A stretch of DNA of 45,743 bases from a virus: UHGV virus genome UHGV-0129770; one strand, given 5' to 3'. A program made the position numbers and the translations under genes. Position 1 is the stretch's first letter. Each line of letters opens with the position of its first letter. The notes beneath the pieces are model-generated. The model did no database searches and was not told the DNA's origin. It worked only from the letters and a program-made list of their open reading frames with translations. Below, piece by piece: positions 301 through 41,530 of the stretch.

Positions 301-765
301 TCACCCTCCTTTACCCTGAAGCATGGCGTCGCTCCGCTCTATACCATCCAGCGCGATTCGCAGTGCCTGAATTGTGGTAGTGCTATCGTTTGGGGCTATT
401 CCATATCGCTCGAATACAGCTAAATGGTTGCGCATAATCTCAGGCGTAAGCTCTTTGTAAGCATAAGCAAGAGGCTCTGATGCATTATCCGGCACAACCG
501 ACGCAGGCGCGGCAGCATAAACAGGAATAACGTCCGCTTGCTCTTTATTGCTTTCATCCGTTAAAGCCCAGAATAATTTCCCGGCCGGATGTTTGAAAAT
601 ATAAGCAACTGGTTCTGCACTATCAGCTTCGCGCCGCTTCTGTAGCTCTGCTGCCATTGCTCTCACGACTTCAACTGGTGCCCTTGCGGCAAACTCTATG
701 TTGGTGATCAGCTCATTAAGATATTGCTCGCTGGGATACTGTTTCTTATTGGTAATAGTGGTCAT
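301..765 (-). CDS. hypothetical phage protein
   Basis: ORF track; 1-nt gap to neighbours, same strand; no recognisable motif. Confidence 0.45.
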   Translation of the reverse strand: MTTITNKKQYPSEQYLNELITNIEFAARAPVEVVRAMAAELQKRREADSAEPVAYIFKHPAGKLFWALTDESNKEQADVIPVYAAAPASVVPDNASEPLAYAYKELTPEIMRNHLAVFERYGIAPNDSTTTIQALRIALDGIERSDAMLQGKGG

Positions 766-1277
766 GCCGCGTTTCCTTCTTTCTTATTAACAATTACACC
801 GTCATATATTTCATTAAGGTGCCCTCTCAACTCCATGCGCCTTAATGCAGATAACATGTAATCGCATTCAACCTGCTTATTTCCAGTAAATGGCTTATCG
901 TCAGGATTACCCCAACAGCAATTACCCTTGGGCCACCCATGTACTTTCCGTACTCTTCCGTTAACAACGTGAAGTAATCCCCAGCCAGGTGGTAAATCCT
1001 CAATTGAAATAATTCCCGGCTCACTAATAAAGAATCGCCAGTCGCCCATTCCAAGAGACGGATTTTTACGAAAACGCTTTTTTCTATCTGCCAACAAGTC
1101 AGCACGAGAACACTTCGCCTCTATCAGGCATGATGCTGAATTTCTGAATCCCATAGCATCTGGCTGTTCTCCGGTACTGGTTACAGCTATAAAGCGGTCA
1201 TGAAAACAAACCTTGAACCCGTTGCGCTTAAGGAACTTGTACGCAATCTGACAGAGTTCGCGGTGTGTTAACGCCAT
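762..1277 (-). CDS. hypothetical protein (possible nuclease-like fold, D...IEAK motif)
   Basis: ORF track frame 762..1349; start moved to in-frame ATG 1277..1275, which has an AAGGAG SD 6 nt upstream and directly abuts the stop of the 1279..1467 ORF. Confidence 0.4.
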   Translation of the reverse strand: MALTHRELCQIAYKFLKRNGFKVCFHDRFIAVTSTGEQPDAMGFRNSASCLIEAKCSRADLLADRKKRFRKNPSLGMGDWRFFISEPGIISIEDLPPGWGLLHVVNGRVRKVHGWPKGNCCWGNPDDKPFTGNKQVECDYMLSALRRMELRGHLNEIYDGVIVNKKEGNAA

Positions 1278-1278
1278 A

Positions 1279-1467
1279 TCACTCTCCTTTAGTGCGCAAG
1301 TGGTTTTTCCAGCGGTTTTGCGCCGCGCTGGGCTTTTTGCAAAAACCACAATCCATCATCCCGTAATATTTCATCAACCCCATCCGTCGGTTGCTGAGTC
1401 TCACCCACTGCCAGACGCCAGGAGCGTTTCTACGAACTAACAGAATCTTTGCTTTACGGTTTTTCAT
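1279..1467 (-). CDS. small basic hypothetical protein
   Basis: ORF track; ATGA start/stop overlap with an unlisted upstream 58-aa ORF (1464..1640), itself TAATG-coupled to the 1640..2434 gene. Confidence 0.3.
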   Translation of the reverse strand: MKNRKAKILLVRRNAPGVWQWVRLSNRRMGLMKYYGMMDCGFCKKPSAAQNRWKNHLRTKGE

Positions 1468-1639
1468 CGCTTTGCTCTCCTGCGTCTCTTTGCTGCTCGT
1501 CGTGCCGCTGCAATACCGGTATGGCGGCGCTTTGGTGCCGGGATGATGTTGTCAGCCATCAGGACATGTGGCTTTGCAATTAGCGCAGAAGCCCAAAAAC
1601 GAGTCGGGTACGGTAACAAGCCGATACATGCCACACGCA

Positions 1640-2434
1640 TTACTCACCTCCTTTGATGCGAATGCCTGCGGCGCGGATTGCAGCGATGACTTCAGAAACT
1701 TTGTATGCCATTACCGTTTGGTAATCATCGTGAAAATCTGTTCGATGAAGCATGCTGCTACGTTCCGGGAGCGATATTTCCCGAGCATCCAGTTCCTTAA
1801 CGCGTTCCTCCAGTTCGTAGACCCTGCATTGTTCTCTATCATCAATCAGATATAACCCAAGACATTCGCTTTCTACCCAACCGCCAAAATCATGATCGTA
1901 ACGCTCACATGAAAACTCACCGTCACCGTCCTTTGTTGGAATGGTGTAACTATCTAATGGGCCACCATATGTCGGCACATTTCCCAATGTTGGATGCTCA
2001 ATCCACATGAAAAATGCACGTCCGGTTATTGGGCAAATATCTGGCCGCCATTGGTTACGAACAGCCTTGGTTTCGGATAATTCTTCAGCGTGTTGTTTTA
2101 CTTCCTCAAGCTCAACTCTCAGCTTCCCTACCGTTAGCGCAATATCCTCGTTCTCCTGATCGCGGCGTTTTATGTATTGCTGGTTTCTTTCCCGTTCATC
2201 CAGTAGTGCCAAAGCAACCTTTGGGTTGAACGCGGCAACATAACGAGCGTTGTTCTCTGCATTTTTCTGTCCATCAAAGCCGGTCCATTTGATAACGTCT
2301 TCACATCGTTCATCACCGGGCGTGTGCACCGCATAAGTACCAGTATCCGTCGAAATAAATGCGACCCATTCGTCTGGTGTTGCCTTTTCTGCCGCCTCAC
2401 GCAGTACCTGATAGTCAATTGTCATTCTCGCCAT
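1640..2434 (-). CDS. Ea22-like modular phage protein, paralog 1
   Basis: ORF track; central coiled coil LTVGKLRVELEEVKQ and C-terminal ...IRAAGIRIKGGE tail shared with ORFs at 6878, 7516 and 8732. Confidence 0.5.
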   Translation of the reverse strand: MARMTIDYQVLREAAEKATPDEWVAFISTDTGTYAVHTPGDERCEDVIKWTGFDGQKNAENNARYVAAFNPKVALALLDERERNQQYIKRRDQENEDIALTVGKLRVELEEVKQHAEELSETKAVRNQWRPDICPITGRAFFMWIEHPTLGNVPTYGGPLDSYTIPTKDGDGEFSCERYDHDFGGWVESECLGLYLIDDREQCRVYELEERVKELDAREISLPERSSMLHRTDFHDDYQTVMAYKVSEVIAAIRAAGIRIKGGE

Positions 2435-3066
2435 CCTTCACAGTTGTAATCACGACAGCCTTCAAAATCATATGGGCTGTACTGCCAGGTGATTTTTCCG
2501 CAATGCGGACAATTCCAACGCACCTTCCCGCTTCGCGACTTCTTTCTTCTGTTCTGCTTTTTCAACCAGTCAGGCATGACCAAACCTGCGCCCTGAACCA
2601 TTGTTCTGCGGTTAAATTTATTGATATTGAACGTCCGGCGCTTTGCTGCATCAGCAATGGAAAATGGCAACCAAACTATTCCTGGTTCGTTTTTGTTGGC
2701 GACGCTAAAGATGGTCGCTTTACTGAAGTCATCTGTTGGCAATCCACCGTGTTGAAGCCAGTAAACATCGTTGCCGTTCCAGCTACCTTTTTTGTAGGCC
2801 ACATACGCAGTGCAATCTGACTCAATCAGGCTTTCTGTAGGGATGTACTGGCAATCAACGTGCCACACTGCCATTGCATCCACGCTATCCGCGCAAACAG
2901 GCTGATCGATATCTCGCCCACAATTCCAGGCTTTTTGGGCTTCTTCCAGCGTGTAAACATGAGCGCGATCGATATCAGAACTGTAACCATTGCCGTTATG
3001 GCAATGGAATGAGGCGTTATTACCCACAGTTTCACGCAAGCACATCAGGTAAAAGCGGTTATTCAC
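2422..3066 (-). CDS. hypothetical protein with C-terminal Cys-rich zinc-ribbon-like motif
   Basis: ORF track; C-terminus WNCPHCGK...CRDYNCEGW. Confidence 0.45.
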   Translation of the reverse strand: MNNRFYLMCLRETVGNNASFHCHNGNGYSSDIDRAHVYTLEEAQKAWNCGRDIDQPVCADSVDAMAVWHVDCQYIPTESLIESDCTAYVAYKKGSWNGNDVYWLQHGGLPTDDFSKATIFSVANKNEPGIVWLPFSIADAAKRRTFNINKFNRRTMVQGAGLVMPDWLKKQNRRKKSRSGKVRWNCPHCGKITWQYSPYDFEGCRDYNCEGWRE

Positions 3067-3343
3067 TGGTTGCCTCCGCTTCCCACGTTTTCAGACTTTC
3101 ACCACAGAACGGGCAAAATGAAACTCGAATAGGCGATTTAGAAAATTCACCAGACCGCAGCATGATCAGGTCTTGTGAATGAATTAATGCATGGTTATAG
3201 ATTTTGTATTTCAGCAGACCTTTTCGCGTCGTGTATTCAGCGTCATGCTCCAGGGATTGCGTCAACGCCGCGCACGGTTCTATCTTGTTGCCATTAATTT
3301 GGCATTTTGACTCACTCACTGGTTGCCCCCTGAATACGCTCAA
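3059..3343 (-). CDS. hypothetical protein
   Basis: ORF track; overlaps neighbours by a few nt in the operon. Confidence 0.35.
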   Translation of the reverse strand: MSVFRGQPVSESKCQINGNKIEPCAALTQSLEHDAEYTTRKGLLKYKIYNHALIHSQDLIMLRSGEFSKSPIRVSFCPFCGESLKTWEAEATSE

Positions 3344-4046
3344 ACTCGATTACCCACACCCAGGGATTAGCGTTCCAGCATTCTTCACCATAGATGGATT
3401 CCCACAGGCGCTGGAACGCAACCTTGGCCATTGCGAAATCTCCCTTGGGAGTTAGGAATGTTCCCGGGTGATCAGGAAGCAAACTTCCAGCAGGCTGAAC
3501 GCCCTCATCCCTTGCATCGCATTCGCTGATATCGTTCAACCGCTCAACGCGCACGTTGGTAATTTCCAACAGGATGCGTGATGCCCATCGCGGCATGTGA
3601 ATTGATGGACGCCACCCGCCATCAAACTTTTCATTCACAGTGTGAGGTTTCCAGTCGGCATCATCGGATATCGACCACAAACCGTAATCACCAGGCTTTT
3701 GCTCACAACTGGCCCGATAAATCCTTGCTGCGTTCTTCTCATCGCCACGACAAAGGTTGTCGTTCCAGTCCACACTGCAACCATCCTCATTGCCTAATAT
3801 CGCCCACGCCTCACGGACCCATATGCGATCACCAACGTTACCGAACGGGCATAAACCATGTTCAGGTGCATCCATAACGTGGGTATAGACACCATTGCGT
3901 TTCTTTGTCGGTTTACGGATAACTAGGCAGTTATCGGCCCTGACATTTTTTACAGGTCGGCGAGTCTGCGTCTTCCTTCCTTCGAGGATGGCCCTGACCA
4001 TCTCATCGTTAAAAATCATCCCACGTTCTTTCATTTTTTGATCCAC
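3312..4046 (-). CDS. hypothetical phage protein, possible ASCH-like domain
   Basis: N-terminal MIFNDEMVRAILEGRKTQTRR resembles the ASCH GxKxxxxR motif region; call from memory only. Confidence 0.35.
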   Translation of the reverse strand: MDQKMKERGMIFNDEMVRAILEGRKTQTRRPVKNVRADNCLVIRKPTKKRNGVYTHVMDAPEHGLCPFGNVGDRIWVREAWAILGNEDGCSVDWNDNLCRGDEKNAARIYRASCEQKPGDYGLWSISDDADWKPHTVNEKFDGGWRPSIHMPRWASRILLEITNVRVERLNDISECDARDEGVQPAGSLLPDHPGTFLTPKGDFAMAKVAFQRLWESIYGEECWNANPWVWVIEFERIQGATSE

Positions 4047-4050
4047 CTCA

Positions 4051-5046
4051 TCAGTTATTGAACGTGATCACTCCGCGCTCGATGGCGAAGTCAAAAAGCT
4101 GGTTAGCGGCTACGTAAAGGCGTATGCCATGTGCTTTTTCCCATGCCCGAACATCGTTTTCTGCGCTTCTGGCGCAGTCATCGCAAAGAGGAACAGCCCA
4201 GCGGTCGTGTTCGTTTAACGAGCGGGCGCGGTACATGAACGGGTGGTTAACTTTGCCACCGCATCCGATGCACGGACGAGAAACCACAAACCGGAGATAA
4301 GCCGGGCTTTTACCGAGGACCGCTTTTGGTCGGCGCATATAAAGCAGGCCGGAATCCTCATCTACAGACAGGTTGACGATCTGCTCTGCGGTTATGTCCA
4401 CCAGCTCGCGGGTACTGTGCTCCCAGGTGATATCTGATTCTTTCAGCGTACCGGTAGGGATTTCAGTTTTTGGCTGACAAAATGCAATGCGACCAGCTTC
4501 ATCAGGCAGTTCGTCTTTAAGATTCCGGCGAATGGCCCAAAAGGTGAGTTCAACCATGCTCAGATCGCGATCTGGCGGAAGTTTTAACTCGCTGGCAGCC
4601 CAGTTCATAATCCAGTTGGCGCGATTCCGTGACAGTTGGTCTTCCAGCTTGCCGTATCCCTTCATCATGTATTCCGCATCATGCTTCCAGCACAGGCGAA
4701 CGGCAGAACCGTTATAGAAATGGGTGGTTAGCTGGTGGCTGCAATCGCGCTTATCATGCGCCTGGCAATCGTGAATGTTGGTGCTAACCCAGTGAACGAG
4801 AGAATCCTCACCACCTAACGCGTTAAATACACGCTCACTTTGAAAAAAGGGTGCCAGTGACTGGTTGGCAACCAGTGAATAATTCAGGTCAACGACACCA
4901 TCAGGGGTGTTTTCAGCCTGTTCACGCGGCAATGGGGATATAAGAAAACGGCGTCCTGCGCCGATGTAATTGCTGGTGGGCTTATCTACAGGAAAGACAG
5001 CCACACCAGTTTCATTTACGACATATGGGGTGATTATTGCACTCAT
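4051..5046 (-). CDS. hypothetical protein with C-terminal Cys cluster (CIGCGG ... CDDC)
   Basis: ORF track; ATG at 5046..5044 checked in sequence; operator-like inverted repeat 45-70 nt upstream. Confidence 0.45.
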   Translation of the reverse strand: MSAIITPYVVNETGVAVFPVDKPTSNYIGAGRRFLISPLPREQAENTPDGVVDLNYSLVANQSLAPFFQSERVFNALGGEDSLVHWVSTNIHDCQAHDKRDCSHQLTTHFYNGSAVRLCWKHDAEYMMKGYGKLEDQLSRNRANWIMNWAASELKLPPDRDLSMVELTFWAIRRNLKDELPDEAGRIAFCQPKTEIPTGTLKESDITWEHSTRELVDITAEQIVNLSVDEDSGLLYMRRPKAVLGKSPAYLRFVVSRPCIGCGGKVNHPFMYRARSLNEHDRWAVPLCDDCARSAENDVRAWEKAHGIRLYVAANQLFDFAIERGVITFNN

Positions 5047-5089
5047 AATGCATACCGACTCTGTTTTGTTCCGATCGGTAAAATAATAT

Positions 5090-5117
5090 GTTAGAAAACT
5101 AAAATCAATGTTCTAAC
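5090..5117. promoter_or_regulatory. operator-like inverted repeat GTTAGA-N16-TCTAAC (site A)
   Basis: GTTAGA at 5090..5095, TCTAAC at 5112..5117, 16-nt spacer; same architecture at 10343 and 22242. Confidence 0.45.
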
Positions 5118-5143
5118 GTGATTTGAGTGCGTAAATGATTTGA

Positions 5144-5836
5144 TCAGACTTTAAGCTGCCCTCCCTTCACCTGCATTAGCGTCAGATTTCCGCAAAAAAC
5201 CGCGCCCGTGTCTATGTAGTGCTGATTCCAGTATGCTTTTGGTCTTCGTACCGGTGTGTGCCCAAAGATAAAGCGATCTGCGCCTGTGATTTCTCCACCA
5301 ATGCCATCTATCGAATCACCGACGCGACTGCGCGACCAGACAACATCAAAAAACGACACATCCTTACCGAACTGGTACTCTCCACCTGGATAGTCGGCAT
5401 GGGCTATAACGATAGTTTCATGCCCGGTGTTCAACTCAATGATATATGGCAGACGCTTTACCAGCTCCACCAGCGCCTTGGCTAATATTTCCTGATCAGT
5501 GCCCAGCATGAAGAACCATTGTCCGCCATTAATTAGCCAGTTATTCACGTTGCCATCAGGACTTAACGCATCAAGCATCAACCGCTCATGGTTCCCCATT
5601 ACTGCCCTGAACCAGGGCATCTGCAATAGTTCCAGACATTCGACATTTTCAGTACCGCGATCGATAAGGTCGCCAACCGATATCAGTAAATCCTGCGCCG
5701 GGTCAAAATCCACACGATGGAGTTCGGACATCAGTCTGGTGTAGCAACCATGCAGATCACCAACAACCCATATGTTTCTGTAGCCAGAACCATCAATACG
5801 GCTATATAAATTCACTTCATGCATAGTCTGGATCAT
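5144..5836 (-). CDS. serine/threonine protein phosphatase, lambda-type metallophosphoesterase
   Basis: Motifs GDLHG, GDLIDRG and GNHE; start set to ATG 5836..5834, which overlaps (ATGA) the stop of the upstream ORF. Confidence 0.85.
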
Positions 5837-6144
5837 GCGGCAACCTTCTCCCGCAGCCAGATACAAACTGGACCATCTTCAGTGTCATGAATAGAGCCAA
5901 CAAACCAGCCTTCACCCTCTGGTCGCTCCGGTTCCCAGGCGGCAATATCGGGACCAGCTGCGTCCAGATCAAAATCATCTTCATCCATACTGCGAATAGT
6001 CCACTGAAGATTATTTTCCTTCATCCAGGCGTCAAATTCCTCAGTGGAAATATATTCACGACCTGCGCAAAACTTCTCATACTCCGGATGTGTCCAGCAG
6101 CCATATTCATCACGTTCTACCGGCATTTCTTTAATGATGCTCAC
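5833..6144 (-). CDS. hypothetical acidic protein
   Basis: ORF track; GTG start at 6144 checked; coupled to the phosphatase gene. Confidence 0.4.
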
Positions 6145-6365
6145 TCTTCATCCTCCAAGTCGGCAACGGCCTCCATCACATCAGAACCGCGAATAACCTC
6201 AAAAGCACGGCAGGCCATTTCAAACACCTGTTGTTCTTGCGGATGCGGTGACTCCCAATACTTAAAACCAGGTCGATGCTCGTAACCCATCATGGAATAA
6301 AAATCGCCAGCAAGTTCAATCGCGGCATCAACAAGTTCGCGATTTGTCATCGTCTGTTCTGTCAT
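6141..6365 (-). CDS. hypothetical protein
   Basis: ORF track; operon context. Confidence 0.35.
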   Translation of the reverse strand: MTEQTMTNRELVDAAIELAGDFYSMMGYEHRPGFKYWESPHPQEQQVFEMACRAFEVIRGSDVMEAVADLEDEE

Positions 6366-6636
6366 TTGGTTTCTCCTGTCTGAACATCACTATCATCAGG
6401 TCGCCTTTTATCGCTATTCTGGCTGTTGTGCCTGGTTCAATGCGGCTAAGTTCAAATGCGTCATAGAACGCTTCTAATGCCTTCTGGCGTAGTTCCTGTT
6501 TGCGCCGTTTTTTCCACTCTTTTAGGAAAATGGAACCCAGCCATCGCCAGGTACGGGACATGATGTAAAGCCAACCGAGAAGTGCCAGACCGGTATTTAG
6601 GGCCGTATCGATCGTTATCGTGGTGTCGATATTCAC
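6328..6636 (-). CDS. hypothetical membrane-associated protein
   Basis: ORF track; hydrophobic stretch LALLGWLYIM; overlaps neighbour start, so its own start is uncertain. Confidence 0.35.
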   Translation of the reverse strand: MNIDTTITIDTALNTGLALLGWLYIMSRTWRWLGSIFLKEWKKRRKQELRQKALEAFYDAFELSRIEPGTTARIAIKGDLMIVMFRQEKPNDRTDDDKSRTC

Positions 6637-6881
6637 TGTGGTGGCTCCTGCTTTTCTGCCTTTAATACCATGCGAGAACCATCATCCAGCTCCCAATTAA
6701 TTTCACCGCCTTCAGCCATGACTAGATGCCAAACGAGTTGTGCGGCCTCGTTGGTTACATCACGACCGCGATCATTGCCGACACGACGTTTTGTTCCATC
6801 CCCTAAGTCACGCATTTTTGCCAACACGATGGTTTTTGATAGCGGTGAAAAACCAAGCTGTAGTCGTGCGGTATTACTCAC
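6633..6881 (-). CDS. hypothetical protein
   Basis: ORF track; operon context. Confidence 0.35.
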   Translation of the reverse strand: MSNTARLQLGFSPLSKTIVLAKMRDLGDGTKRRVGNDRGRDVTNEAAQLVWHLVMAEGGEINWELDDGSRMVLKAEKQEPPQ

Positions 6882-7519
6882 TGTTTGCCTCCTTTTCGAA
6901 GCTGGTCAGCGAACCTATCAGCTGCATCCGCGCAAGCAGAAGCAACGGAATCAAAAAATGGATCATCTCCGGTATCGCGCATCGTCAAAGCGAATGCCTC
7001 CACCCCTTGTGCCTGTATTTCTACAAGGTATGCCTTAGATGTAGTGCTTTTCGCCTCGCCTAATTCGTTATGAGCGATGTTCGCTATACATGCGATGTCT
7101 ATATCTGGATGATTAATTGGGCAATGGCTAAGAATTGCCTCAAGTGCTGCTTTTTTGCTTTGGCATTCCGCCACCATCGCCCCGCAATTGCTTTCATATT
7201 CGGCAATACGCTGTTTAGCAGCCTCCAGCTCAACACGCAGCTTCTCAAGCGTTAGAGCCATCTCCATGTTCTCTTCCAGCAGTTCAATCACATCAGGATC
7301 GCTATCATCAACTACTGTTATGCGCGATTTTTTGTAATGCTCGTCAGCATAAGTTCGTCCAGTTTTGAAGCATCCGTCGTCCTCCATGCCGGAACAGGCA
7401 TAAACAACATGTGATCCAGATATGCGCTGCATTGACATTTCCTCGCCACAAACAGAGCATTTAGGCGCTGGTTTCGGTGAAAAACGTTCACGTAACGTCT
7501 GATAGTAAAGCTCGCTCAC
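6878..7519 (-). CDS. Ea22-like modular phage protein, paralog 2 (N-terminal Cys4 ribbon)
   Basis: CSVCGEE...YACSG ribbon, coiled coil LTLEKLRVELEAAKQRIAE, C-terminal ADQLRKGGKQ. Confidence 0.5.
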   Translation of the reverse strand: MSELYYQTLRERFSPKPAPKCSVCGEEMSMQRISGSHVVYACSGMEDDGCFKTGRTYADEHYKKSRITVVDDSDPDVIELLEENMEMALTLEKLRVELEAAKQRIAEYESNCGAMVAECQSKKAALEAILSHCPINHPDIDIACIANIAHNELGEAKSTTSKAYLVEIQAQGVEAFALTMRDTGDDPFFDSVASACADAADRFADQLRKGGKQ

Positions 7520-25509: not shown

Positions 25510-27171
25510 TTAACCTAACTTCGCCCAAGTATCACGCAGCCCAACGGTGCGGTTAAATACCGGTTTTTCCGCCGTGGAATGGCGGCTGTCGAGGCAGAAA
25601 TAACCTTCACGCTCAAACTGGAATGCTTTACCCGCTACCGCTTCTTTCAGCGACGGTTCAGCAAAGCCCTGTTTGATCACCAGCGATTCCGGGTTAATCA
25701 CCGACAGGAAATCATCCGCAGCACCTGGGTTAGGCACGCTGAACAGACGGTCATACAAACGGATTTCAACCGGCAGCGCATGTGCCGCGCTCACCCAGTG
25801 AATAACACCTTTGACTTTACGACCATCTGCCGGATCTTTGCTTAAGGTGTCGGCGTCATAAGTACAGAAGATGGTGGTGATATTGCCTTCGGCATCTTTC
25901 TCCACGCGTTCTGCCTTAATGACGTAAGCATTACGCAGACGCACTTCTTTACCCAGCACCAGACGTTTGTACTGCTTGTTAGCTTCTTCGCGGAAATCGG
26001 CGCGATCGATCCAAATCTCACCGCTAAACGGCACCTGACGGCTGCCCATTTCCGGTTTGTTCGGATGGTTCGGCATGGTAACCATTTCGCCTTCGCCCTG
26101 ATAGTTTTCGATAACCAGTTTCACCGGATCGATAACCGCCATTGCGCGCGGCGCATTTTCGTTGAGATCTTCACGGATGCAGGATTCCAGCGACGCCATC
26201 TCAATGGTGTTGTCCTGCTTGGTCACGCCGATGCGTTTGCAGAACTCACGAATAGAAGCCGCAGTGTAACCACGACGACGCAGACCGGAAATGGTCGGCA
26301 TACGCGGGTCATCCCAGCCTTCAACGTGCTTGTCGGTCACCAGCAGGTTCAGCTTACGCTTGGACATCACAGTGTATTCCAGATTCAGGCGCGAGAATTC
26401 GTACTGGCGCGGGTGAACAGGAATGGTGATGTTGTCCAGCACCCAGTCGTACAGGCGACGGTTGTCCTGGAACTCAAGCGTACACAGAGAGTGCGTAATA
26501 CCTTCCAGCGCATCGCTGATGCAGTGGGTGAAGTCGTACATCGGGTAGATGCACCACTTGTTGCCAGTCTGGTGGTGTTCAGCAAATTTAATGCGGTACA
26601 GCACCGGATCGCGCATCACGATAAACGGCGAAGCCATGTCGATTTTCGCACGCAGGCAGGCTTTACCTTCTTCAAAACCACCGGCACGCATTTTTTCGAA
26701 CAGCGCCAGGTTCTCTTCAACGCTGCGGTCGCGGTACGGGCTGTTTTTACCCGGTTGCGTCAGGGTGCCGCGATATTCGCGGATCTGTTCCGGCGTCAGT
26801 TCATCAACGTACGCCAGGCCTTTATTGATCAGTTCGATCGCATAGGCGTGGAGCTGATCAAAATAATCGGAGGAGTAACGGACGTTACCAGACCAGTGAA
26901 AACCTAACCACTCTACGTCGTTTTTGATCGACTCAACATACTCGATATCTTCTTTTACCGGGTTAGTGTCGTCGAAACGCAGGTTGCACTGGCCTTTATA
27001 GTCCTGGGCGATCCCGAAGTTCAGGCAGATAGATTTCGCATGGCCAATATGCAGATAGCCATTCGGCTCCGGCGGGAAACGGGTGTGTACTGTGGTGTGC
27101 TTACCACTGGCCAGATCTTCATCGATGATCTGACGAATAAAGTTAGTCGGGCGGGCTTCTGCCTCACTCAT
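25510..27171 (-). CDS. glnS: glutaminyl-tRNA synthetase
   Basis: 553 aa; class I HIGH (PNGYLHIGH) and KMSKS-type (VMSKR) motifs; matches enterobacterial GlnS almost residue for residue from memory; C-terminus here ends ...TWAKLG. Confidence 0.9.
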
Positions 27172-27319
27172 TGTGGATTCCTCAAAGCGTAAACAACGTA
27201 TAACGGCGTATGATCTTATAAGCAGAATAGGCTGACAACCACTAGTTGGTTAGAAATTACTTTCTATAGTTGTTTCAATAATGAGCTTTTTCATCAAGCC
27301 CACTTCTGCTCATAAGTAA

Positions 27320-27400
27320 ACCAGTGCTAAATGGTACACAATTGGCACCAAAAAGGATGTAAAGGTGCACCAAATCGGTGCTACATTGGTACACCTTTGG
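27320..27400. repeat. cluster of short GGTACAC/GGTGCACC-type repeats downstream of the ParG-like gene (approximate bounds)
   Basis: aaatGGTACACaattGGCACCaaaaaggatgtaaaGGTGCACCaaatcGGTGCtacatTGGTACACc. Confidence 0.35.
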
Positions 27401-27439
27401 TTCAATAATTTTTAAGTTCTAAAACCAACCTGAAAGACA

Positions 27440-27724
27440 TTATTTTGCTTCCTCAGACTCCGCTAACATGAGGATTGCATGCCGAATCAAGTTCAATTTG
27501 CTGCGGTTCAGTTTTTTGCTTAAATCATCGAGTACGCCGTACTCATATTCATTAAAGCTCACGCGTATGGATTTAAAGTCACGCGGCGCATCTTTATCTG
27601 GAGTTTGAGTTGCAGCCTCAACGCCCGGCACCAAATCGGCTTTAATGGCGAACTCTTCAATGCGGCGCTCTAGTTCAGGGTCTTTTACAGCTTGTGCATT
27701 CACTGGCTCACGGCGCTTAATCAC
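27440..27724 (-). CDS. ParG-like small centromere-binding protein (ribbon-helix-helix type)
   Basis: 94 aa, immediately downstream of and overlapping the ParA gene; C-terminal region SIRVSFNEYEYGVLDDLSKKLNRSKLNLIRHAILMLAE. Confidence 0.5.
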   Translation of the reverse strand: MIKRREPVNAQAVKDPELERRIEEFAIKADLVPGVEAATQTPDKDAPRDFKSIRVSFNEYEYGVLDDLSKKLNRSKLNLIRHAILMLAESEEAK

Positions 27725-28353
27725 GATAACAACTCCTTAATCAACATCTGGATCTCGCCCTTTGCTTTCCCGTTGTCCATTTCAACAACCCCCTTCCCTT
27801 CTGCCATGCAGTCACGATAAATCTTACGGTCACGGACGACGGTTTTCAGGAGTTCAAGTTGCGGGTATTCAGCAAGATATTCCCTTGCCTCATTGGCTTC
27901 GTTAACAACCGGGTTGGATGGTGCCATAGTCAGCATGGCATACGCCTTAAGTTTAGGGTTGAAATCCATCGCCTCAGCTATAACCTCAACAAGGTGCGGT
28001 AGAGTATCCAGATCCGGCTGGGAAGGACGGAACGGCACCAGAAGCACATCTGCCGCTGTCATGCCTGTACGCATCTCACGACTGTCGCGACCAGCAGTAT
28101 CGACGACAACGTACTCGTAACGTTTATCCAGATCGAGCAGCGTCTCACGAATATTATCGAACTTCTGCACGCAGTGAATGACAGGGGCAACCTCACCTGC
28201 ATTACGGTCTGACGCCCATCGAGCTGCCGTTCCCTGCTTATCAGCATCAATCAAGACGACATCTTTGTTTTTTCGGGCCAGCTCGGCACAAATATTGACG
28301 CTGGTGGTTGACTTGCCACAGCCTCCCTTTTGACTTGCTACCAAGATAATCAT
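27721..28353 (-). CDS. parA: ParA-family partition ATPase (small, deviant Walker A)
   Basis: N-terminus MIILVASQKGGCGKST is a deviant Walker A box; 210 aa. Confidence 0.8.
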   Translation of the reverse strand: MIILVASQKGGCGKSTTSVNICAELARKNKDVVLIDADKQGTAARWASDRNAGEVAPVIHCVQKFDNIRETLLDLDKRYEYVVVDTAGRDSREMRTGMTAADVLLVPFRPSQPDLDTLPHLVEVIAEAMDFNPKLKAYAMLTMAPSNPVVNEANEAREYLAEYPQLELLKTVVRDRKIYRDCMAEGKGVVEMDNGKAKGEIQMLIKELLS

Positions 28354-28399
28354 GTCCGCACCTCGGCTTTATTACGGCTCTATTTTCACACTAAAACGG

Positions 28400-28590
28400 T
28401 ACCGATTTAACACATCAACGGTACAGCAATAGCACCATTCTTAATGCCGGGAGTATAACATCAAATCAGATGGATGCTGGTACACGTTTTGCGCCTGAAT
28501 AGCACTAAATTAGTACCAAATATGTACCAGTACATTAACAACACCAATTCGGCGTTGTTTTGGTGGCACTTCAACACCATTTTGACACCA
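28400..28590. repeat. GGTAC/GTACC-rich repeat cluster upstream of parA, candidate centromere/operator (approximate bounds)
   Basis: Repeated acGGTACcga, caacGGTACAgc, gcTGGTACAcg, ttaGTACCaaatatGTACCaGTACatt by eye. Confidence 0.35.
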
Positions 28591-28593
28591 AAT

Positions 28594-28624
28594 TTGAACA
28601 AAAAAGGCTGCAATTTGCAGCCTT
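28594..28624 (-). terminator. intrinsic terminator of the parMR operon
   Basis: 9-bp stem AAGGCTGCA / TGCAGCCTT with loop att; T-run in the minus-strand sense. Confidence 0.55.
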
Positions 28625-28642
28625 AAGATAGAGTATGAACCG

Positions 28643-28987
28643 TCAATCAGGTAGAGAGTCAGCCAGATTGCGCGCCGACGCGCTTTTGGCAACAACTTGC
28701 TCCTTCACTGGCTCAATGGAGGCAGGGCGCTCCTCAACCGCAGCTGGTAGTTCCAGGAAGGATGCCAGCATTTTTCGGATCAGCTCCGGGTTATTGTCTT
28801 CGGTCAGCAGGGAAGCCAGTAATCCTGGAAGCCTGCTATCGACTTCTCCCAGCGCAAGCCCTGCCAACAATGCGGTTCTTGCCATATCGCTATGTTTTTT
28901 TATCTTCTCGCTCGCCGCCTTTTCATTGGCATAAGCCTCTGGGCGAAGATAAATCATCACTTTCTTACGTTCCTGAGACATGGACAT
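28643..28987 (-). CDS. parR: ParR/StbB-like centromere-binding partition protein
   Basis: MARTALLAGLALGEVDSRLPGLLASLL resembles R1 ParR (RLNRAALTAGLALYRQD...) from memory; directly downstream of parM. Confidence 0.65.
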   Translation of the reverse strand: MSMSQERKKVMIYLRPEAYANEKAASEKIKKHSDMARTALLAGLALGEVDSRLPGLLASLLTEDNNPELIRKMLASFLELPAAVEERPASIEPVKEQVVAKSASARNLADSLPD

Positions 28988-28994
28988 TACCTCG

Positions 28995-29951
28995 TTAACC
29001 GATTGCTTTCAGGCCATGAACAAGAGCAAGTTGCGGGTCATCCGCCACGAAGAAACGGTCATCACGAATATTAACTTGCTCGCGAATTGCATCTGCCACC
29101 AGCGGTGCGCCACCACCGATCACCATGACATGCGTATATCCTTTAAAGTCGCCAATCACATCAAGAACGCGGGTACGCAGACGGTCAATGCTTGCGGCAA
29201 TGGCCTTTTTCACATCACCAATCGCTGATGGGTCATTGATATTGTCGTTCAGATAATCTTCATCGTGGCGGTTAATAATGAGCTGATCGACATTGTAATT
29301 TGACGTTTCGGTATTGGCTCTGGCAAGTGCTTGCCTTACTTCCCTGGTAACCAGAGAGACGCCAAGATTCGAATCGCCAAAAACACGGGAAACTGCCGTC
29401 ATTTGCCCGGCGACCATTGAAACATCAAGGGTAGTTCCACCCAAATCGACGATAAGAACAGAATGGGCAGGGTTCAGATTGTCGCACAGGCCAATTCCTG
29501 CCGGAATAGACTCCGGGCGTACCGTAACTTTCTTAATCGTGAACACATTGCCTTTATTCAGCGTGACGGGGCGCATAAGGCTGGCTTTCTTGCGCTCGAT
29601 GTTATCGAGATTGTATTGCGCGTCGTCGTCGTAAAACTCCGCCAGAGGCAGCGTGACCACAATTTCTACTTCCTGCGGCTCAATGCCACTTGTCAGCAGG
29701 GCATGGTGAACAGCCAGGACGTTAAGCGGGCTGTATTGCCATTCCACGTTATTCGTCGGCAGAACATCTGGCGAGATCAAATCATACGAATACTTTTCGT
29801 CGTCAATGACATAGTTAAACGGCTTGCCCGCACCAAATGTTGCTGACCATCCGCGCTTAAAGCTGTTAGGGCTGATGTGAGTGCGAGTTTCCCCGTCGTG
29901 CTCCCACAGCATTTTGATATTGGTTGAACCATCATCGATAAAAATGCGCAT
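28995..29951 (-). CDS. parM: ParM/StbA actin-like partition ATPase
   Basis: MRIFIDDGSTNIK, ISPNSFKR, NVLAVHHALLTSG, IVDLGGTTLDVS, YGDSSLGVSLVT and GYTHVMVIGGGA match R1 ParM as I recall it; start set to ATG 29951 (GGAG SD) rather than GTG 29975. Confidence 0.85.
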   Translation of the reverse strand: MRIFIDDGSTNIKMLWEHDGETRTHISPNSFKRGWSATFGAGKPFNYVIDDEKYSYDLISPDVLPTNNVEWQYSPLNVLAVHHALLTSGIEPQEVEIVVTLPLAEFYDDDAQYNLDNIERKKASLMRPVTLNKGNVFTIKKVTVRPESIPAGIGLCDNLNPAHSVLIVDLGGTTLDVSMVAGQMTAVSRVFGDSNLGVSLVTREVRQALARANTETSNYNVDQLIINRHDEDYLNDNINDPSAIGDVKKAIAASIDRLRTRVLDVIGDFKGYTHVMVIGGGAPLVADAIREQVNIRDDRFFVADDPQLALVHGLKAIG

Positions 29952-29975
29952 CTTCTTGCTCCACTTCTGAGACAC

Positions 29976-30200
29976 ATTTGAGAATCAAAATGCAATTTTA
30001 AAAGAGAGGCCCCCAAAAATCCACACCAAAAGAGATAAAAAAGAGTGATTATTGAGTTCATTTTGAGAATATCTTAATCACCCAATGAATGATGGTCTGA
30101 CAGTGAGATTTATTTGAGAATGAATTGAGAATACAAAAATATTCCGAAATTGAACTCTCAGTTTGAATGACGAAATAACAAAGTGATGACAATAGGAGGA
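29976..30200. repeat. parC-like centromere/promoter region with TTGAGAAT direct repeats
   Basis: TTGAGAAT at 29978, 30063, 30114 and 30125 plus degenerate copies, immediately upstream of parM. Confidence 0.5.
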
Positions 30201-30217
30201 TAACCAGGAGGTGAAGA

Positions 30218-30502
30218 ATGAGCGCAATAGCCACCAGCGACACCCTTTGCTCTGGTCACGGAGGATTTCCGCCGCGACTGGTAGCTGAAACTGTTCCCTG
30301 GTTCACCGTTAACGGTAAGCCAGTTGTTGTAGATGGTGCCATGTTTCCCAGTCACACTGACGGTAACAGTGCACATCCAGGGGCAGCTGTATCGACGCGA
30401 GTATGGTTTTCGATAGGTGGAAAGGGAGTTGTCTGTGTAGGCGATCCGCTTTCTTGTGGTTCTGTTATCGCCAACGGCGAGGATATTTTTCAGGTTGCAT
30501 AA
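30218..30502 (+). CDS. PAAR-domain spike-tip protein
   Basis: CSGHGG...VNGKPVVVDGA...SHTDG...HPGAAVST...GGKGVVCVGDPLSCGSVI fits the PAAR pattern; GGAGGTG SD. Confidence 0.6.
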   Translation: MSAIATSDTLCSGHGGFPPRLVAETVPWFTVNGKPVVVDGAMFPSHTDGNSAHPGAAVSTRVWFSIGGKGVVCVGDPLSCGSVIANGEDIFQVA

Positions 30503-31305
30503 TGCTTGATTCAATAGGTGAAGTTAAAGCCTTCAAAATTCTGTCAGATGCCGGTATCTCTACACCAGAATCTATAACCATAAGCCGGGCAGCGTCTGTA
30601 AAAGCCTCATCACTCGCCAGCGCCATACAGGGAATAGTTCACGCCGATAAAACCTATCCTGATTCTGTTTCGGCCTGGACTACTCAATTGCTTGGCTTTT
30701 CTGAACAGCTAAATGAGGCCAGCAAAGCGTCTTCATTACTGGCTGATTCTCTTTCCCCTTACACCAAGCCATCAGAGCTGTTACAGATGAAGATTGGCTG
30801 GGAATGCTACGTAAAAGGTAACGAGCTGACCCCCATACCTGCTTTCGCCCTTGTTGAGGGGATGGGGAATGTTTCCATTCCGCAATCTCTAACGGACGCA
30901 TTGACGGCGCTAAAACTTGATGCTCTGAAAACCGCCATGAACGCCATTAACGCAAAAATAGAAGCTGCTGGAAGTGCTGGTGGTGATAGCAATGGTGGAC
31001 AGGGTGGTGCTGGGGGCGCTCAGGCTCCAGTCATTACTCAGGATGAAATTGAAGCTTTACGGGAAGCAGTGACAGCCGCCGAAGTTTTACTCTCCGAAAT
31101 TAACTCAGCAAGTGAGAGTGTCGTAGCCCTTACAGGTCGCATTAAAACGTCAACCACTCAGGCAACCAAAGGTTTAGAGAACGCTGTCGCCATCACGTTA
31201 ACTGGTTCTCTACTGGATGATGCAGTAATGAGTCCGGCAATCAGTTTAATCATGCCACAAGGCGTTATCGATGCGCTCCAAAAGAACACCAAAAAGGAAC
31301 CATAG
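30502..31305 (+). CDS. hypothetical virion-associated protein
   Basis: ORF track frame 30403..31305; start moved to ATG 30502, which overlaps (TAATG) the PAAR stop. Confidence 0.45.
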   Translation: MLDSIGEVKAFKILSDAGISTPESITISRAASVKASSLASAIQGIVHADKTYPDSVSAWTTQLLGFSEQLNEASKASSLLADSLSPYTKPSELLQMKIGWECYVKGNELTPIPAFALVEGMGNVSIPQSLTDALTALKLDALKTAMNAINAKIEAAGSAGGDSNGGQGGAGGAQAPVITQDEIEALREAVTAAEVLLSEINSASESVVALTGRIKTSTTQATKGLENAVAITLTGSLLDDAVMSPAISLIMPQGVIDALQKNTKKEP

Positions 31306-31360
31306 CAACACCACTTAGGAACACAAAAGGATGTGAATTGGTACATGTTTAACACCAAAA

Positions 31361-31834
31361 ATGAACCTAAAGAGGATGGTTTTGAAAAAGATAATTTTGA
31401 TTGTAATTGCGCTTTTAGCCATTTCTGGAATTTACCGAACAACGACGGCAGTTATCGAACACATCAGGTATGTCCGAGCGCTTGAAGACTCAAAATCACA
31501 ACTGGAAAGCACGAACAACACGCTTTCTACCGCATTACAGTTAAGTGAGAACGCTCGCTCAGCCATGCTGACCGAAAACGAAAGAATTAAAGCACTGGAA
31601 AAGGAGTACCAGCGCAAAACAGCAGAACTGAATGCCAACCTAATCAAACAACGGGAGGAAAGCCAGAATGAAATCACTCGCCTTGAAAATGCGTTACGCC
31701 GTGCTGGGATTAACGATGTGCGTGTGCCTGATGACGTTATCAGGATGCAGCGGGAACGGGCAAAAGCCATCAACCAGCGTGCCAGTGAAAATTACCGTAG
31801 AAGCCACCAGCAAGCCGCAGGCAAATCTGATTGA
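31361..31834 (+). CDS. Rz-like inner-membrane spanin
   Basis: N-terminal TM helix IILIVIALLAISGIY, then a long coiled coil; a lipoprotein ORF is embedded in the +1 frame. Confidence 0.6.
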   Translation: MNLKRMVLKKIILIVIALLAISGIYRTTTAVIEHIRYVRALEDSKSQLESTNNTLSTALQLSENARSAMLTENERIKALEKEYQRKTAELNANLIKQREESQNEITRLENALRRAGINDVRVPDDVIRMQRERAKAINQRASENYRRSHQQAAGKSD

Positions 31835-32000
31835 TTACTCCCCTTGTTTAGTGCCAGAAGACACGCCAGTGCTGTTAAACAAGTATCCGACATACGCTGA
31901 ACAGTTATTCAGCACGATCGACGAATGCAACCAACGAAACGCACTGAATAACCAAAGAAACAGGGAGATTTGGGAAGGGAAGGGGGATCAAGGCTCCTGA
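31668..32000 (+). CDS. Rz1-like outer-membrane lipoprotein spanin (start uncertain)
   Basis: Lipobox LTLSGC after a signal peptide; begins inside the Rz frame and extends past its stop. Confidence 0.55.
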   Translation: MKSLALKMRYAVLGLTMCVCLMTLSGCSGNGQKPSTSVPVKITVEATSKPQANLIDYSPCLVPEDTPVLLNKYPTYAEQLFSTIDECNQRNALNNQRNREIWEGKGDQGS

Positions 32001-40195: not shown

Positions 40196-40494
40196 TTTTG
40201 AGGGCATTTTTTACATCATTAATCCATCTGTAATGAAGGCATTCTTTACACATTTCAATAATATCAATCAGTTAACACAGTGAATGATAATAAAAAAGCG
40301 CAATAAGAATGCACGATACGCACGATATTGGTTGAGGGTGATTTTTACATAATCCTTACATATCAATATGTTATATAAAAACACAACTTGCCAATAACAA
40401 GATACATGCAATTAAGATGTAAAAATTGCCCTCAATTGCCGATCGTTAAGGGCAAATTCTACACCTTGAGAGGGGTGTAAAAATTGCCCTTAAG
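40196..40494. repeat. iteron-like repeats downstream of the rep gene, in both orientations
   Basis: TGAGGGCA at 40198, TGAGGGTG at 40333, inverted TTGCCCTCA at 40426, TTAAGGGCAA at 40446, inverted TTGCCCTTAA at 40484 overlapping the rep stop. Confidence 0.6.
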
Positions 40495-41245
40495 ACTGCT
40501 GATAGGTAAATTTTATCCTGGTAACTTTGCCGCCTTCCGTCACCTCTGAGAAGACTATTTTCATTTTTGTATTTTTTTCAATCTCTGCTACAGCCTTCGT
40601 TAAAAAACTTCTCTTAAATTCGGCATACCGCTGATAGCTTTTTGGTAACCCATAACGCTCCCGCATCCATTCGACGCCAAGTATGGCAAAGCCGCTTCCA
40701 TCATCCTTCCTGTACTGGCATAAGGACTCATAAAGCCGCATAGAATAAGGATTTGTAAGGCGAGATACTTCGGTAAAATTCAGCCTTGTGAATCTCTTAT
40801 CAAGCAGAGTAAAAAACGGCATGAGATATGGATTAAGATGAATAATGTAAGTCCCGCGCCGTGGTGAATAGGCATCCTTAATCATCCAAGGATAAGACTC
40901 ATAACTGTCTTCTGATTCGGTCGATTCATCAGGGTTATATATCGTAACTTTCTTCTCGCTAAGACCTGAAATGGCCTTACGAATATCCTTGCTGGCTTCA
41001 GCAGAGGGCAAATTATACATCTCTGCATATTCGTTGACCGTCAACTCACAGGCACCTGAACCAAGAACGCCATCCTTAGAAGCATAGCGAAGTCTTCCCA
41101 CCACAATAAACAACAGTCGCTTTTGGTCGCGAGTCAGGTGATAAGCAGCCTCCGTGATCTCATTGGCTTGTGCCAAACTACGACTAATAGGTGTCGCTGA
41201 CTCAATCAGGCTGACGGCTTTTGCTGTTAATTCCGCTCTGTTCAT
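40490..41245 (-). CDS. RepE/RepA-type (Rep_3 family) plasmid replication initiator
   Basis: ITEAAYHLTRDQKRLLFIVV, AEASKDIRKA, YESYPWMIKDAYSPRRGTYIIHLNPYLMPFF, NPYSMRLYESLCQYRKDDGSG are colinear with F-plasmid RepE as I recall it; start set to ATG 41245 (251 aa) rather than TTG 41278. Confidence 0.8.
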   Translation of the reverse strand: MNRAELTAKAVSLIESATPISRSLAQANEITEAAYHLTRDQKRLLFIVVGRLRYASKDGVLGSGACELTVNEYAEMYNLPSAEASKDIRKAISGLSEKKVTIYNPDESTESEDSYESYPWMIKDAYSPRRGTYIIHLNPYLMPFFTLLDKRFTRLNFTEVSRLTNPYSMRLYESLCQYRKDDGSGFAILGVEWMRERYGLPKSYQRYAEFKRSFLTKAVAEIEKNTKMKIVFSEVTEGGKVTRIKFTYQQS

Positions 41246-41268: not shown

Positions 41269-41388
41269 GTGAGGGCAATTTTTACATCACTTTGAGGGCA
41301 ATTACTACACCTTTTGAGGGCAAATCTTACACCTTCTGAGGGCAAATCTTACACCGATCGTATCTAATTGAGGGCAAATCTTACACCA
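41269..41388. repeat. array of five direct iterons upstream of rep
   Basis: TGAGGGCAA(A/T)TCTTACACC-like units at 41270, 41293, 41315, 41337 and 41369, about 22-bp period. Confidence 0.75.
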
Positions 41389-41530
41389 GACTCCTCTACA
41401 GCCCGCGCCACTACTGGCTCCAGCGACGCCTAAAAAGGATCTAAAAAGGATTAAAAATGGAAAAAGGTTTATAAAAATACTCTGTGTATATGTGAGTAGC
41501 GTCACTTAAGGTGTAAAAATCACCCTCAAT
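41389..41530. promoter_or_regulatory. putative origin region: AT-rich stretch bounded by an inverted iteron
   Basis: AT-rich run taaaaaggatctaaaaaggattaaaaatggaaaaaggtttataaaaatac at 41431..41480; inverted iteron GGTGTAAAAATCACCCTCAAT at 41510..41530. Confidence 0.45.

Follow-up and report, generated by a model that had tools for sequence, protein, structure and literature searches.

This report concerns the partition locus of virus genome UHGV-0129770 (UHGV), of which one strand of 45,743 nucleotides was analysed; that whole stretch is referred to below as the window. Positions 27440-29951 of the window are filled by four minus-strand open reading frames (ORFs) in tandem, first parM and parR, encoding an actin-like ATPase and its adaptor, and then parA and a small gene, encoding a second ATPase of a different class and a putative centromere-binding adaptor of 94 amino acids (aa). 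Arrays of short repeats lie beside both gene pairs, and a replication initiator gene with its own repeats lies farther along the window (Table 1). A preliminary interpretation made from the letters alone, hereafter the sequence-only reading, had placed two different partition systems side by side here, and every element that it named was recovered at or beside the place where it had been put.

Table 1. Features of the partition locus and the replicon in the window (positions are those of the whole stretch)
Feature	Position	Strand	Description
Downstream array, parC2-like candidate second adaptor site	27317-27427		~9 TGGTRY-type heptamer units
Putative centromere-binding adaptor, 94 aa	27440-27724	-	ParG/ParB-like in role; ribbon-helix-helix by profile, model and fold search
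Type Ib ParA ATPase, 210 aa	27721-28353	-	Pfam AAA_31, MipZ, CbiA; PHROG 'ParA-like partition protein'
Upstream array, parC1-like candidate centromere/operator of the parA operon	28387-28590		~13 TGGTRY units
Intrinsic terminator closing the parMR operon	28600-28624	-	9-bp stem then T6
ParR (StbB-type) adaptor, 112 aa	28643-28981	-	Pfam Plasmid_stab_B 3.5e-11
ParM actin-like ATPase, 318 aa	28995-29951	-	Pfam StbA_N 1.8e-69, ParM C-terminal domain 3.5e-55
Predicted parC-like centromere/operator of parMR	29964-30157	-	Nine 11-bp iterons, core (A/T)TCTCA
Third array, possible extra adaptor site	31285-31383		6 TGGTRY units
Second iteron set, downstream of rep	40199-40492		Five iterons; position comparable to P1 incA
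Rep_3-family (RepE/RepA/pi class) replication initiator, 251 aa from ATG	40490-41245	-	Rep3_N 3.4e-29, Rep3_C 9.8e-16
Origin-side iterons (TGTAARATTTGCCCTCA)	41270-41528		Five direct copies 41270-41385, one inverted 41512-41528

For parM, the mechanical ORF call from a GTG at 29975 proved too long, and the ATG at 29951 agreed with both R1 ParM and the annotation of Escherichia phage D6. The protein matched the R1 ParM crystal structures at E ~1e-111, was 54% identical to R1-type ParM over its full length and 43% identical to pB171-type ParM, and retained intact nucleotide-binding motifs (DDGS, DLGGTTLD and GGGA). Because pB171 (NC_002142) was absent from the plasmid collection, a plasmid of identical architecture, NZ_CP124494, with parM-parR divergent from parA and a 91-aa gene, was used as its stand-in in all such comparisons. 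The parR start lies 14 nt past the parM stop (with the ATG at 28987 as its start, the product would be 114 aa long), and ParR matched the pB171 ParR structure (PDB 2jd3) at E 1.1e-6, with 32% and 31% identity to the pB171-type and R1-type proteins, respectively.

Upstream of parM the iterons fall into three phased runs (30132-30100, 30070-30027 and 29985-29964), with an inverted copy further upstream at 30136-30157. The sequence ATTCTCAA (TTGAGAAT on the plus strand) was present four times in the 266-bp region upstream of parM, where 0.02 copies were expected, and 9 of 11 CTCW cores were spaced by exactly 11 bp (30129/118/107, 30067/56/45/34 and 29982/71). A promoter-like element, TTAAGA-18-AATAAT (30077-30048), which is a consensus match only, overlaps the middle run. 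Both the TCTCA core and its phasing were kept in the related loci L005, L013 and L014 despite differing spacer sequences. At the other end of the operon, the RNA fold of the terminator was strong (-13.5 kcal/mol, z -4.4), and its hairpin was unchanged in D6, L005 and L007, whose flanking sequences diverge, and differed by a single loop substitution in L013. The domains, the motifs and the nine phased iterons thus agree with the sequence-only reading, which had described a type II ParM/ParR operon with upstream repeats, and the cassette has the parts by which that type can be recognised from sequence, namely ParM, an adjacent ParR and an iteron array that would contain the promoter. Divergent from parM lies a gene for a PAAR-motif protein (30218-30502, plus strand), the counterpart of P1 upfC, and the PAAR promoter region therefore shares the 266-bp spacer with the ParR iterons.

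The second ATPase is of another kind. ParA lacks a helix-turn-helix (HTH) or other DNA-binding domain at its N-terminus, carries a deviant Walker A motif (KGGCGKS) at residues 9-15 together with LIDAD and YVVVD motifs (A' and B), matched the ParF structure 4dzz at E 6.6e-19, and aligned end to end both with ParF (206 aa) and with pB171-type ParA, to which it is 43% identical. These traits, together with the overlapping adaptor gene, bear out its earlier description as type Ib-like. In the array upstream of parA the units occur in both orientations at roughly 11-bp intervals and are GGTAC-rich in the window allele, with six copies of GGTAC in the 289-bp parR-parA spacer against 0.30 expected. 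The units bracket an extended -10 element, TGTTATACT (28452-28460, minus strand), which has been conserved even where the rest of the spacer is about 50% identical between alleles. With a small ParA, a gene for a ribbon-helix-helix (RHH) adaptor by prediction, and repeats over the presumed promoter, the cassette has the composition expected of a type Ib system.

A second array lies between the adaptor stop codon and the promoter of the neighbouring glnS gene, again in both orientations and roughly 11-bp phased, with about nine units where about two were expected. Downstream of the adaptor gene, a corresponding array recurs in three unrelated sequence contexts (that of the window and D6, that of L010 and that of L013), which argues that the array belongs to the module; in L010 the sequence downstream of the adaptor gene differs, yet it again holds TGGTRY-type units. 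The sequence-only reading had described flanking repeats of the GGTAC type. Repeats do lie on both sides; their general motif is TGGTRY, and the downstream array falls just outside the start position of 27440 that had been given for the locus. A third array spans the upfB stop, a 55-bp intergenic spacer and the i-spanin start, and its first three units are exactly 11 bp apart; in D6, L013 and L014 these units are retained amid differing surrounding sequence, and TGGTRY units were absent at the equivalent P1 junction. The third array could be a third centromere site or an operator of the downstream lysis genes. Across the 45.7-kb window only three 100-bp clusters held at least four TGGTRY units (at 28513, 27332 and 31286), where first-order Markov simulations gave 0.04 such clusters per sequence, and the top three TGGTRY clusters of D6 lie at the same three places. 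No TGGTRY cluster was found in the parM promoter region and no TCTCA iterons in the parA spacer, and an Rfam scan of both strands of 26900-31600 gave no match.

The adaptor gene starts at a GTG that overlaps the parA stop codon (GTGA). Its product consists of a basic N-terminal tail (MIKRR), a helix at residues 16-30 and a predicted C-terminal RHH domain at about residues 50-93; I2, K3 and R5 of the tail were invariant among the aligned close D6-like relatives, and the family consensus begins MxKxR. A word-indexed protein search with the adaptor returned close relatives only, and an exhaustive profile search of representatives recovered 130 adaptor-family clusters, all of 54-100 aa except for about ten longer matches. 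Among 84 aligned family members, Pfam matches were to NikA-like (27), RHH_1 (21), DUF6290 (13) and RHH_7 (6), of which NikA-like, RHH_1 and RHH_7 are RHH families. Searched against PDB sequences, the family profile gave best matches that were mostly RHH proteins (HP0222, CopG) over the strand and helices, below significance, and among the PDB matches of single sequences and profiles, all of them sub-threshold, none was to ParG. A first structural model built from eight close sequences was poor (predicted local distance difference test score, pLDDT, 60.8) and called for a deeper alignment, with which the AlphaFold (AF2) model reached a pLDDT of 85.5, and of 91-98 over residues 41-90, with an IRVSF segment followed by two C-terminal helices. 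The top Foldseek matches of this model in the PDB were nearly all RHH proteins (CopA, CopG, TacA, ParD and Arc, with ParG at rank 25), with template modelling (TM) scores of 0.7-0.83 on the target and root-mean-square deviations of 1.1-1.6 Å.

Gene context pointed the same way. In 5 of 5 cases looked up, distant adaptor relatives lay directly after a 209-217-aa ParA gene, overlapping or abutting it, and one of these pairs was beside an IncFII RepA gene. On an ordinary plasmid of Enterobacteriaceae bacterium Kacie_13 (CP045667.1), a 46%-identical adaptor homologue follows a 70%-identical ParA beside RepB (730-6890); this 93-kb plasmid also encodes a separate type Ia ParA/ParB system, another combination of two partition systems. 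From predicted fold and gene position, we conclude that the 94-aa protein is probably the centromere-binding adaptor of a type Ib system. The sequence-only reading had called it ParG-like, a term that is apt for its fold and role only and not for its sequence family: there is no detectable sequence similarity to ParG or to pB171-type ParB (for the latter, BLAST E 0.08, hhalign probability 0.4%), and when the adaptor family was aligned by hhalign with the small protein of the IncI1 type, the result was likewise negative.

A 3.1-kb region of the window was 89% identical to phage D6. The D6 gene order is P1-like, running from baseplate and tail genes through hrdC, dmt, glnS, the par locus, upfC/PAAR and upfB and, further on, through the major capsid, sheath, tube and replication initiator genes to pmgB and sit. 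On the basis of this match and gene order the window is a D6-like phage-plasmid, related to P1. Matches to the 3.1-kb region were found in 123 PLSDB plasmids, seven of them at least 99% identical; their hosts were nearly all E. coli, Salmonella and Shigella, 121 of the 123 were non-mobilizable, and sizes were mostly 75-97 kb among those listed. The D6-like capsid gene was present in 121 PLSDB plasmids and parMR in 123 records, 121 of which share the host breakdown of the capsid set, with the whole par locus covered at 80% or more of the query in 110-115 of those records. The double par locus therefore accompanies essentially every D6-like capsid gene in PLSDB, and even divergent plasmids of E. 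marmotae and S. dysenteriae preserve the order of the four genes. Among 5,426 complete E. coli genomes, 83 (~1.5%) carried parMR, always on a plasmid and in exactly one copy per genome; none of the 83 carriers held two co-resident D6-like plasmids, an absence that says nothing on which determinant excludes.

The sequence-only reading had allowed that one of the two systems might carry inactivating lesions, and the comparison of relatives spoke otherwise. All four par genes were intact in six diverged loci and are under purifying selection there: ratios of nonsynonymous to synonymous substitution rates (dN/dS) were 0.00-0.03 for ParM, 0.00-0.06 for ParA, 0.00-0.26 for ParR and 0.06-0.39 for the adaptor (0.06-0.21 except for one near-identical pair). 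The two cassettes differ in how far they have diverged. ParM was 94-100% identical across the family, and the window ParA was 85-88% and its adaptor 73-82% identical to other alleles, with a parR-parA spacer about 50% identical to that of the D6 type. Against the L005 type, identity was 98-100% over the arrays, the initial 37 codons of ParA and the adaptor's RHH half, and between them lies a mosaic patch of about 700 bp (27552-28243) that is only 60-85% identical to every sampled allele, with flanks 98-100% identical to the L005/L006 type. The patch comprises the rest of ParA and the N-terminal tail of the adaptor, and its breakpoints part these from the RHH domain and both arrays. Moreover, the same ParA protein (WP_016262372.1) was found with parMR alleles whose ParR is only 62% identical, and the two cassettes therefore recombine independently. 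The ParA/adaptor module is thus deeply allelic and mosaic and ParM is nearly invariant, a pattern that goes beyond existing annotation. The sequence-only reading had suggested that incompatibility behaviour may be affected, which would accord with so deep a divergence between alleles of the type Ib module and of its arrays.

On these grounds we consider it probable that the window carries two segregation cassettes, each complete and transcribed on its own, that follow one another head to tail on one low-copy prophage. The protein-DNA binding, autoregulation and stabilisation that we infer for them would proceed as follows. In the first cassette, ParR dimers would bind the nine 11-bp-phased TCTCA iterons upstream of parM to form a partition complex, which would also repress the embedded parM promoter, and ParM-ATP filaments capped by ParR/parC would push sister plasmids apart; such filament pushing has been demonstrated for R1. 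In the second, the adaptor would bind the TGGTRY arrays on both sides of its operon cooperatively through its RHH domain, and since the upstream array brackets the extended -10 promoter, adaptor binding would also autoregulate the operon. The basic N-terminal tail of the adaptor would stimulate nucleoid-bound ParA-ATP and thereby lead to equipositioning of the plasmid over the nucleoid, as has been established for pB171 par2 and TP228 ParFGH. Because a strong terminator separates the cassettes and their DNA sites are distinct and separate, the two are best seen as redundant or complementary.

Several observations weigh against two working cassettes. On the side of the type Ib module, the consensus promoter scan did not call the parA promoter and the extended -10 element was assigned manually by eye; ParA scored 165 bits against NCBIfam NF041546 (ParA_partition), for which the cut-off is 180; and the 94-aa protein itself had no match in Pfam or NCBIfam and no significant sequence match to a characterised centromere-binding protein. 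Its Foldseek E-values were also non-significant (0.35 or worse), because the domain is short (~43 residues). On the side of the type II module, parM of plasmid pCUVET20-PYO4.3 (L010, NZ_CP115379.1) carries a 1-nt deletion at codon 49, at about position 2960 of that locus (window ~29806), where TCATTGAC has become TCA-TGAC, and the gene table of this plasmid has no parM entry; the deletion could mean that ParMR is dispensable, or it could be a sequencing error. A search of the accessible literature returned no functional study of either cassette in D6 or its relatives. Finally, on the Shigella plasmid pINV two functional par systems barely affected stability of the native plasmid (PMC6519299), and the presence of par systems is therefore no proof of their importance.

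Some of these points would also suit an arrangement in which only one cassette partitions and the other is kept for a different job, either with ParA and the RHH protein regulating neighbouring phage genes through the three arrays or with ParMR positioning phage DNA in the lytic cycle. Global regulation by the RHH adaptor of a type Ib system has an example in the omega protein of pSM19035 (PMC3074150). The third array, placed 3 kb away from the parA promoter where upfB meets the spanin genes, is conserved in D6-like phage-plasmids and absent from P1, and it counts in favour of this arrangement, as do the frameshifted parM of one relative and the redundancy of the two pINV systems (PMC6519299). 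Yet ParA, for which pure transcriptional repression would have no use, is constrained as strongly as ParM, is always co-inherited with the adaptor and, as part of the same module, lies beside Rep genes on ordinary non-phage plasmids, while ParM and ParR are kept in essentially all D6-like phage-plasmids. The sequence-only reading had itself named a non-partition regulator as what the ParA/ParG pair might prove to be, and the adaptor family was instead found consistently coupled to ParA genes. We therefore regard a division of labour with a single partition cassette as unlikely.

The close association of the cassettes raises a further alternative, that they form one cross-regulated unit in the manner of pB171, with the type I adaptor and ParR affecting each other's promoter. 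ParM, ParR and ParA are homologous to a pB171-type locus, the cassettes are always adjacent in D6-like phage-plasmids, and TGGTRY arrays flank the parMR operon on both sides (28387-28590 and 31285-31383). The operons are nevertheless tandem rather than divergent, with a strong and conserved terminator between them, each promoter region lacks the repeats of the other system, and the modules assort independently, as the pairing of WP_016262372.1 with differing ParR proteins illustrates, so that cross-regulation of this kind appears very improbable. That the repeats are compositional or chance matches and the small ORF no real gene, as the short, degenerate units and the missing Pfam match might suggest, is hardly credible and already refuted by the number of clusters (three against 0.04 expected), the exact 11-bp phasing, the persistence of units across diverged alleles, and an ORF family of 130 clusters with constraint relative to other alleles and a confident RHH model.

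Within the reading of two segregation cassettes, the third array and the mosaic allele invite an extension. At the third array the adaptor could contribute to a multi-site centromere that brackets parMR, or it could repress phage late or lysis genes; if so, such repression would couple maintenance of the plasmid state to the silencing of lytic functions. The mosaic allele points to recombination as the way in which D6-like phage-plasmids evolve their partition specificity, and recombination may keep interacting pairs together, the RHH domain with its sites and the tail with its ATPase. Taken jointly, that the adaptor binds all three arrays and that specificity evolves in this way is a tentative proposal, and one that we would sooner doubt than endorse.

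The replicon lies apart from the partition locus. The initiator matched the PHROG for replication initiation proteins at 4e-108, and its D6 orthologue is annotated as a replication initiation protein. Iterons occur on both sides of the gene, with 12 matches in the window against 0.28 expected, and an iteron-like sequence with two mismatches lies inside the rep coding region (41003-41019). Initiator domains WH1 and WH2 and flanking direct iterons are the features of a Rep_3 iteron replicon, and the element can be classed as such from its sequence. The sequence-only reading had set a RepE-like initiator and its iterons 10 kb away from the partition genes, beyond lysis and virion genes, and this layout was recovered: the gap measures 10.3 kb and contains PAAR/upfC, upfB, the i-/o-spanin pair, two unknown genes, and capsid, sheath, baseplate and tube genes. 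The 'lysis' genes of that reading are an overlapping pair (31361-31834 and 31668-32000, plus strand) with matches to Rz-like spanin PHROGs, the second ORF with a lipobox-like LSGC, and they are the counterparts of P1 ppfA and mlp. P1 ppfA, taken to stand for 'plasmid partition function', was considered as a possible ParA counterpart; the P1 record gives 'possible periplasmic function' for this gene, which is paired with the Rz-like mlp, and the candidate was dropped.

P1 has oriR-repA-incA-parA-parB-parS in a single block flanked by upfA and gene 23, whereas in D6-like phage-plasmids the neighbours of par are dmt/glnS and upfC and those of rep are tub and pmgB. The single block of P1 against the split placement in D6-like elements supports modular placement of maintenance functions in a shared virion backbone, and the dispersed, modular backbone that had been proposed gains support from the same comparison. 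The position of the Rep_3 replicon at a different junction of a P1-like virion order probably reflects independent acquisition or replacement of maintenance modules. Directly downstream of the par locus lies a full-length glutaminyl-tRNA synthetase gene (25510-27171, minus strand; TIGR00440 glnS, 1068 bits), which D6 and most relatives carry, which L013 and L010 lack and which has no annotation in L014; being patchy among relatives, it appears to be accessory cargo at this junction.

D6-like phage-plasmids are often mistaken for ordinary plasmids, and their segregation machinery helps explain how a non-integrated, single-copy prophage persists, with which other plasmids it can coexist, and how it might be cured or engineered. 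Much of what is described here was anticipated. A literature listing gives D6 a ParA-Ib ATPase and an RHH protein (PMC8026635), the GenBank records of D6 name StbA/StbB-type and ParA-like proteins, and a Salmonella D6-like plasmid has been described with parA, stbB and parM (PMC6799933); in phage D6 both cassettes had thus been annotated before. What the comparison adds is that the double locus is fixed in the family, that the actin-type motor is near-invariant and the Walker-type module with its sites highly allelic, and that maintenance modules occupy different slots in D6 and P1. Relative to existing annotation, what is new in the allelic mosaic and the third array is modest, and the current understanding of partition systems is unchanged.

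Other low-copy replicons on which a Walker-type system occurs together with an actin-type one include Shigella pINV (ParAB and StbAB) and R27 (PMC6519299, PMC13245405). On pINV the Walker-type system is of type Ia and the two loci are 90 kb apart (PMC6519299), whereas the systems of the window are adjacent and carried by a phage-plasmid. The combination of a type I RHH system with a type II system has been counted in 971 PLSDB plasmids (PMC13245405), and because it is so common the novelty of the present pair is low.

Its closest parallel is the double par locus of pB171, in which par1 (type II) and par2 (type Ib) are likewise directly adjacent and whose ParM, ParR and ParA are the homologues compared above. 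The layout of pB171 par2 is parC1-parA-parB-parC2 (PMC4270457), and the window resembles it in having a type Ib operon with adaptor-binding arrays, here predicted ones, both upstream and downstream. According to PMC6519299, which cites Ebersbach and Gerdes 2001, the pB171 operons are divergent, adjacent and served by one shared regulatory region; those of the window are instead in tandem on the minus strand, with a terminator between them and separate repeat sets. The repeat sequences also differ, the window adaptor is without detectable sequence similarity to pB171 ParB, and the window replicon is a phage-plasmid with a third array.

Compared with ParMRC of R1, the type II cassette agrees in the position of parC upstream of parM, in 11-bp iterons placed around the promoter, here a predicted one, in the high similarity of ParM, and in a ParR that is an N-terminal RHH adaptor of about 115 aa. 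It departs from R1 in the low identity of ParR, in the grouping of its iterons (nine, in three runs, where R1 has two runs of five), and in an iteron sequence that is unrelated (a TCTCA core against the AACCCAAAAC type of R1-like plasmids). Given these differences in iterons and ParR, a different specificity is expected.

The type Ib cassette shares with ParF/ParG/parH of TP228 and delta/omega of pSM19035 a small ParA, an adaptor with a flexible basic N-terminus followed by an RHH domain, and binding sites built of short units, arrayed in both orientations over the operon promoter. The adaptors show no detectable relationship in sequence, and the sites of those two systems are 4-bp ACTC boxes or contiguous heptads, whereas the unit of the window is TGGTRY with a phasing of about 11 bp. 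The presence of several arrays on one plasmid recalls the multiple omega sites of pSM19035 (PMC3074150).

P1, finally, is a related phage-plasmid whose virion genes are largely syntenic with those of the window and which likewise uses a Rep_3-type initiator with iterons on both sides. Its maintenance functions are organised otherwise, with a single type Ia system composed of a large HTH-containing ParB and an IHF-bent parS that is contiguous with oriR-repA-incA. The D6-like window has no type Ia system; it carries two other partition systems in its place, with par and rep placed at different junctions of the shared backbone.

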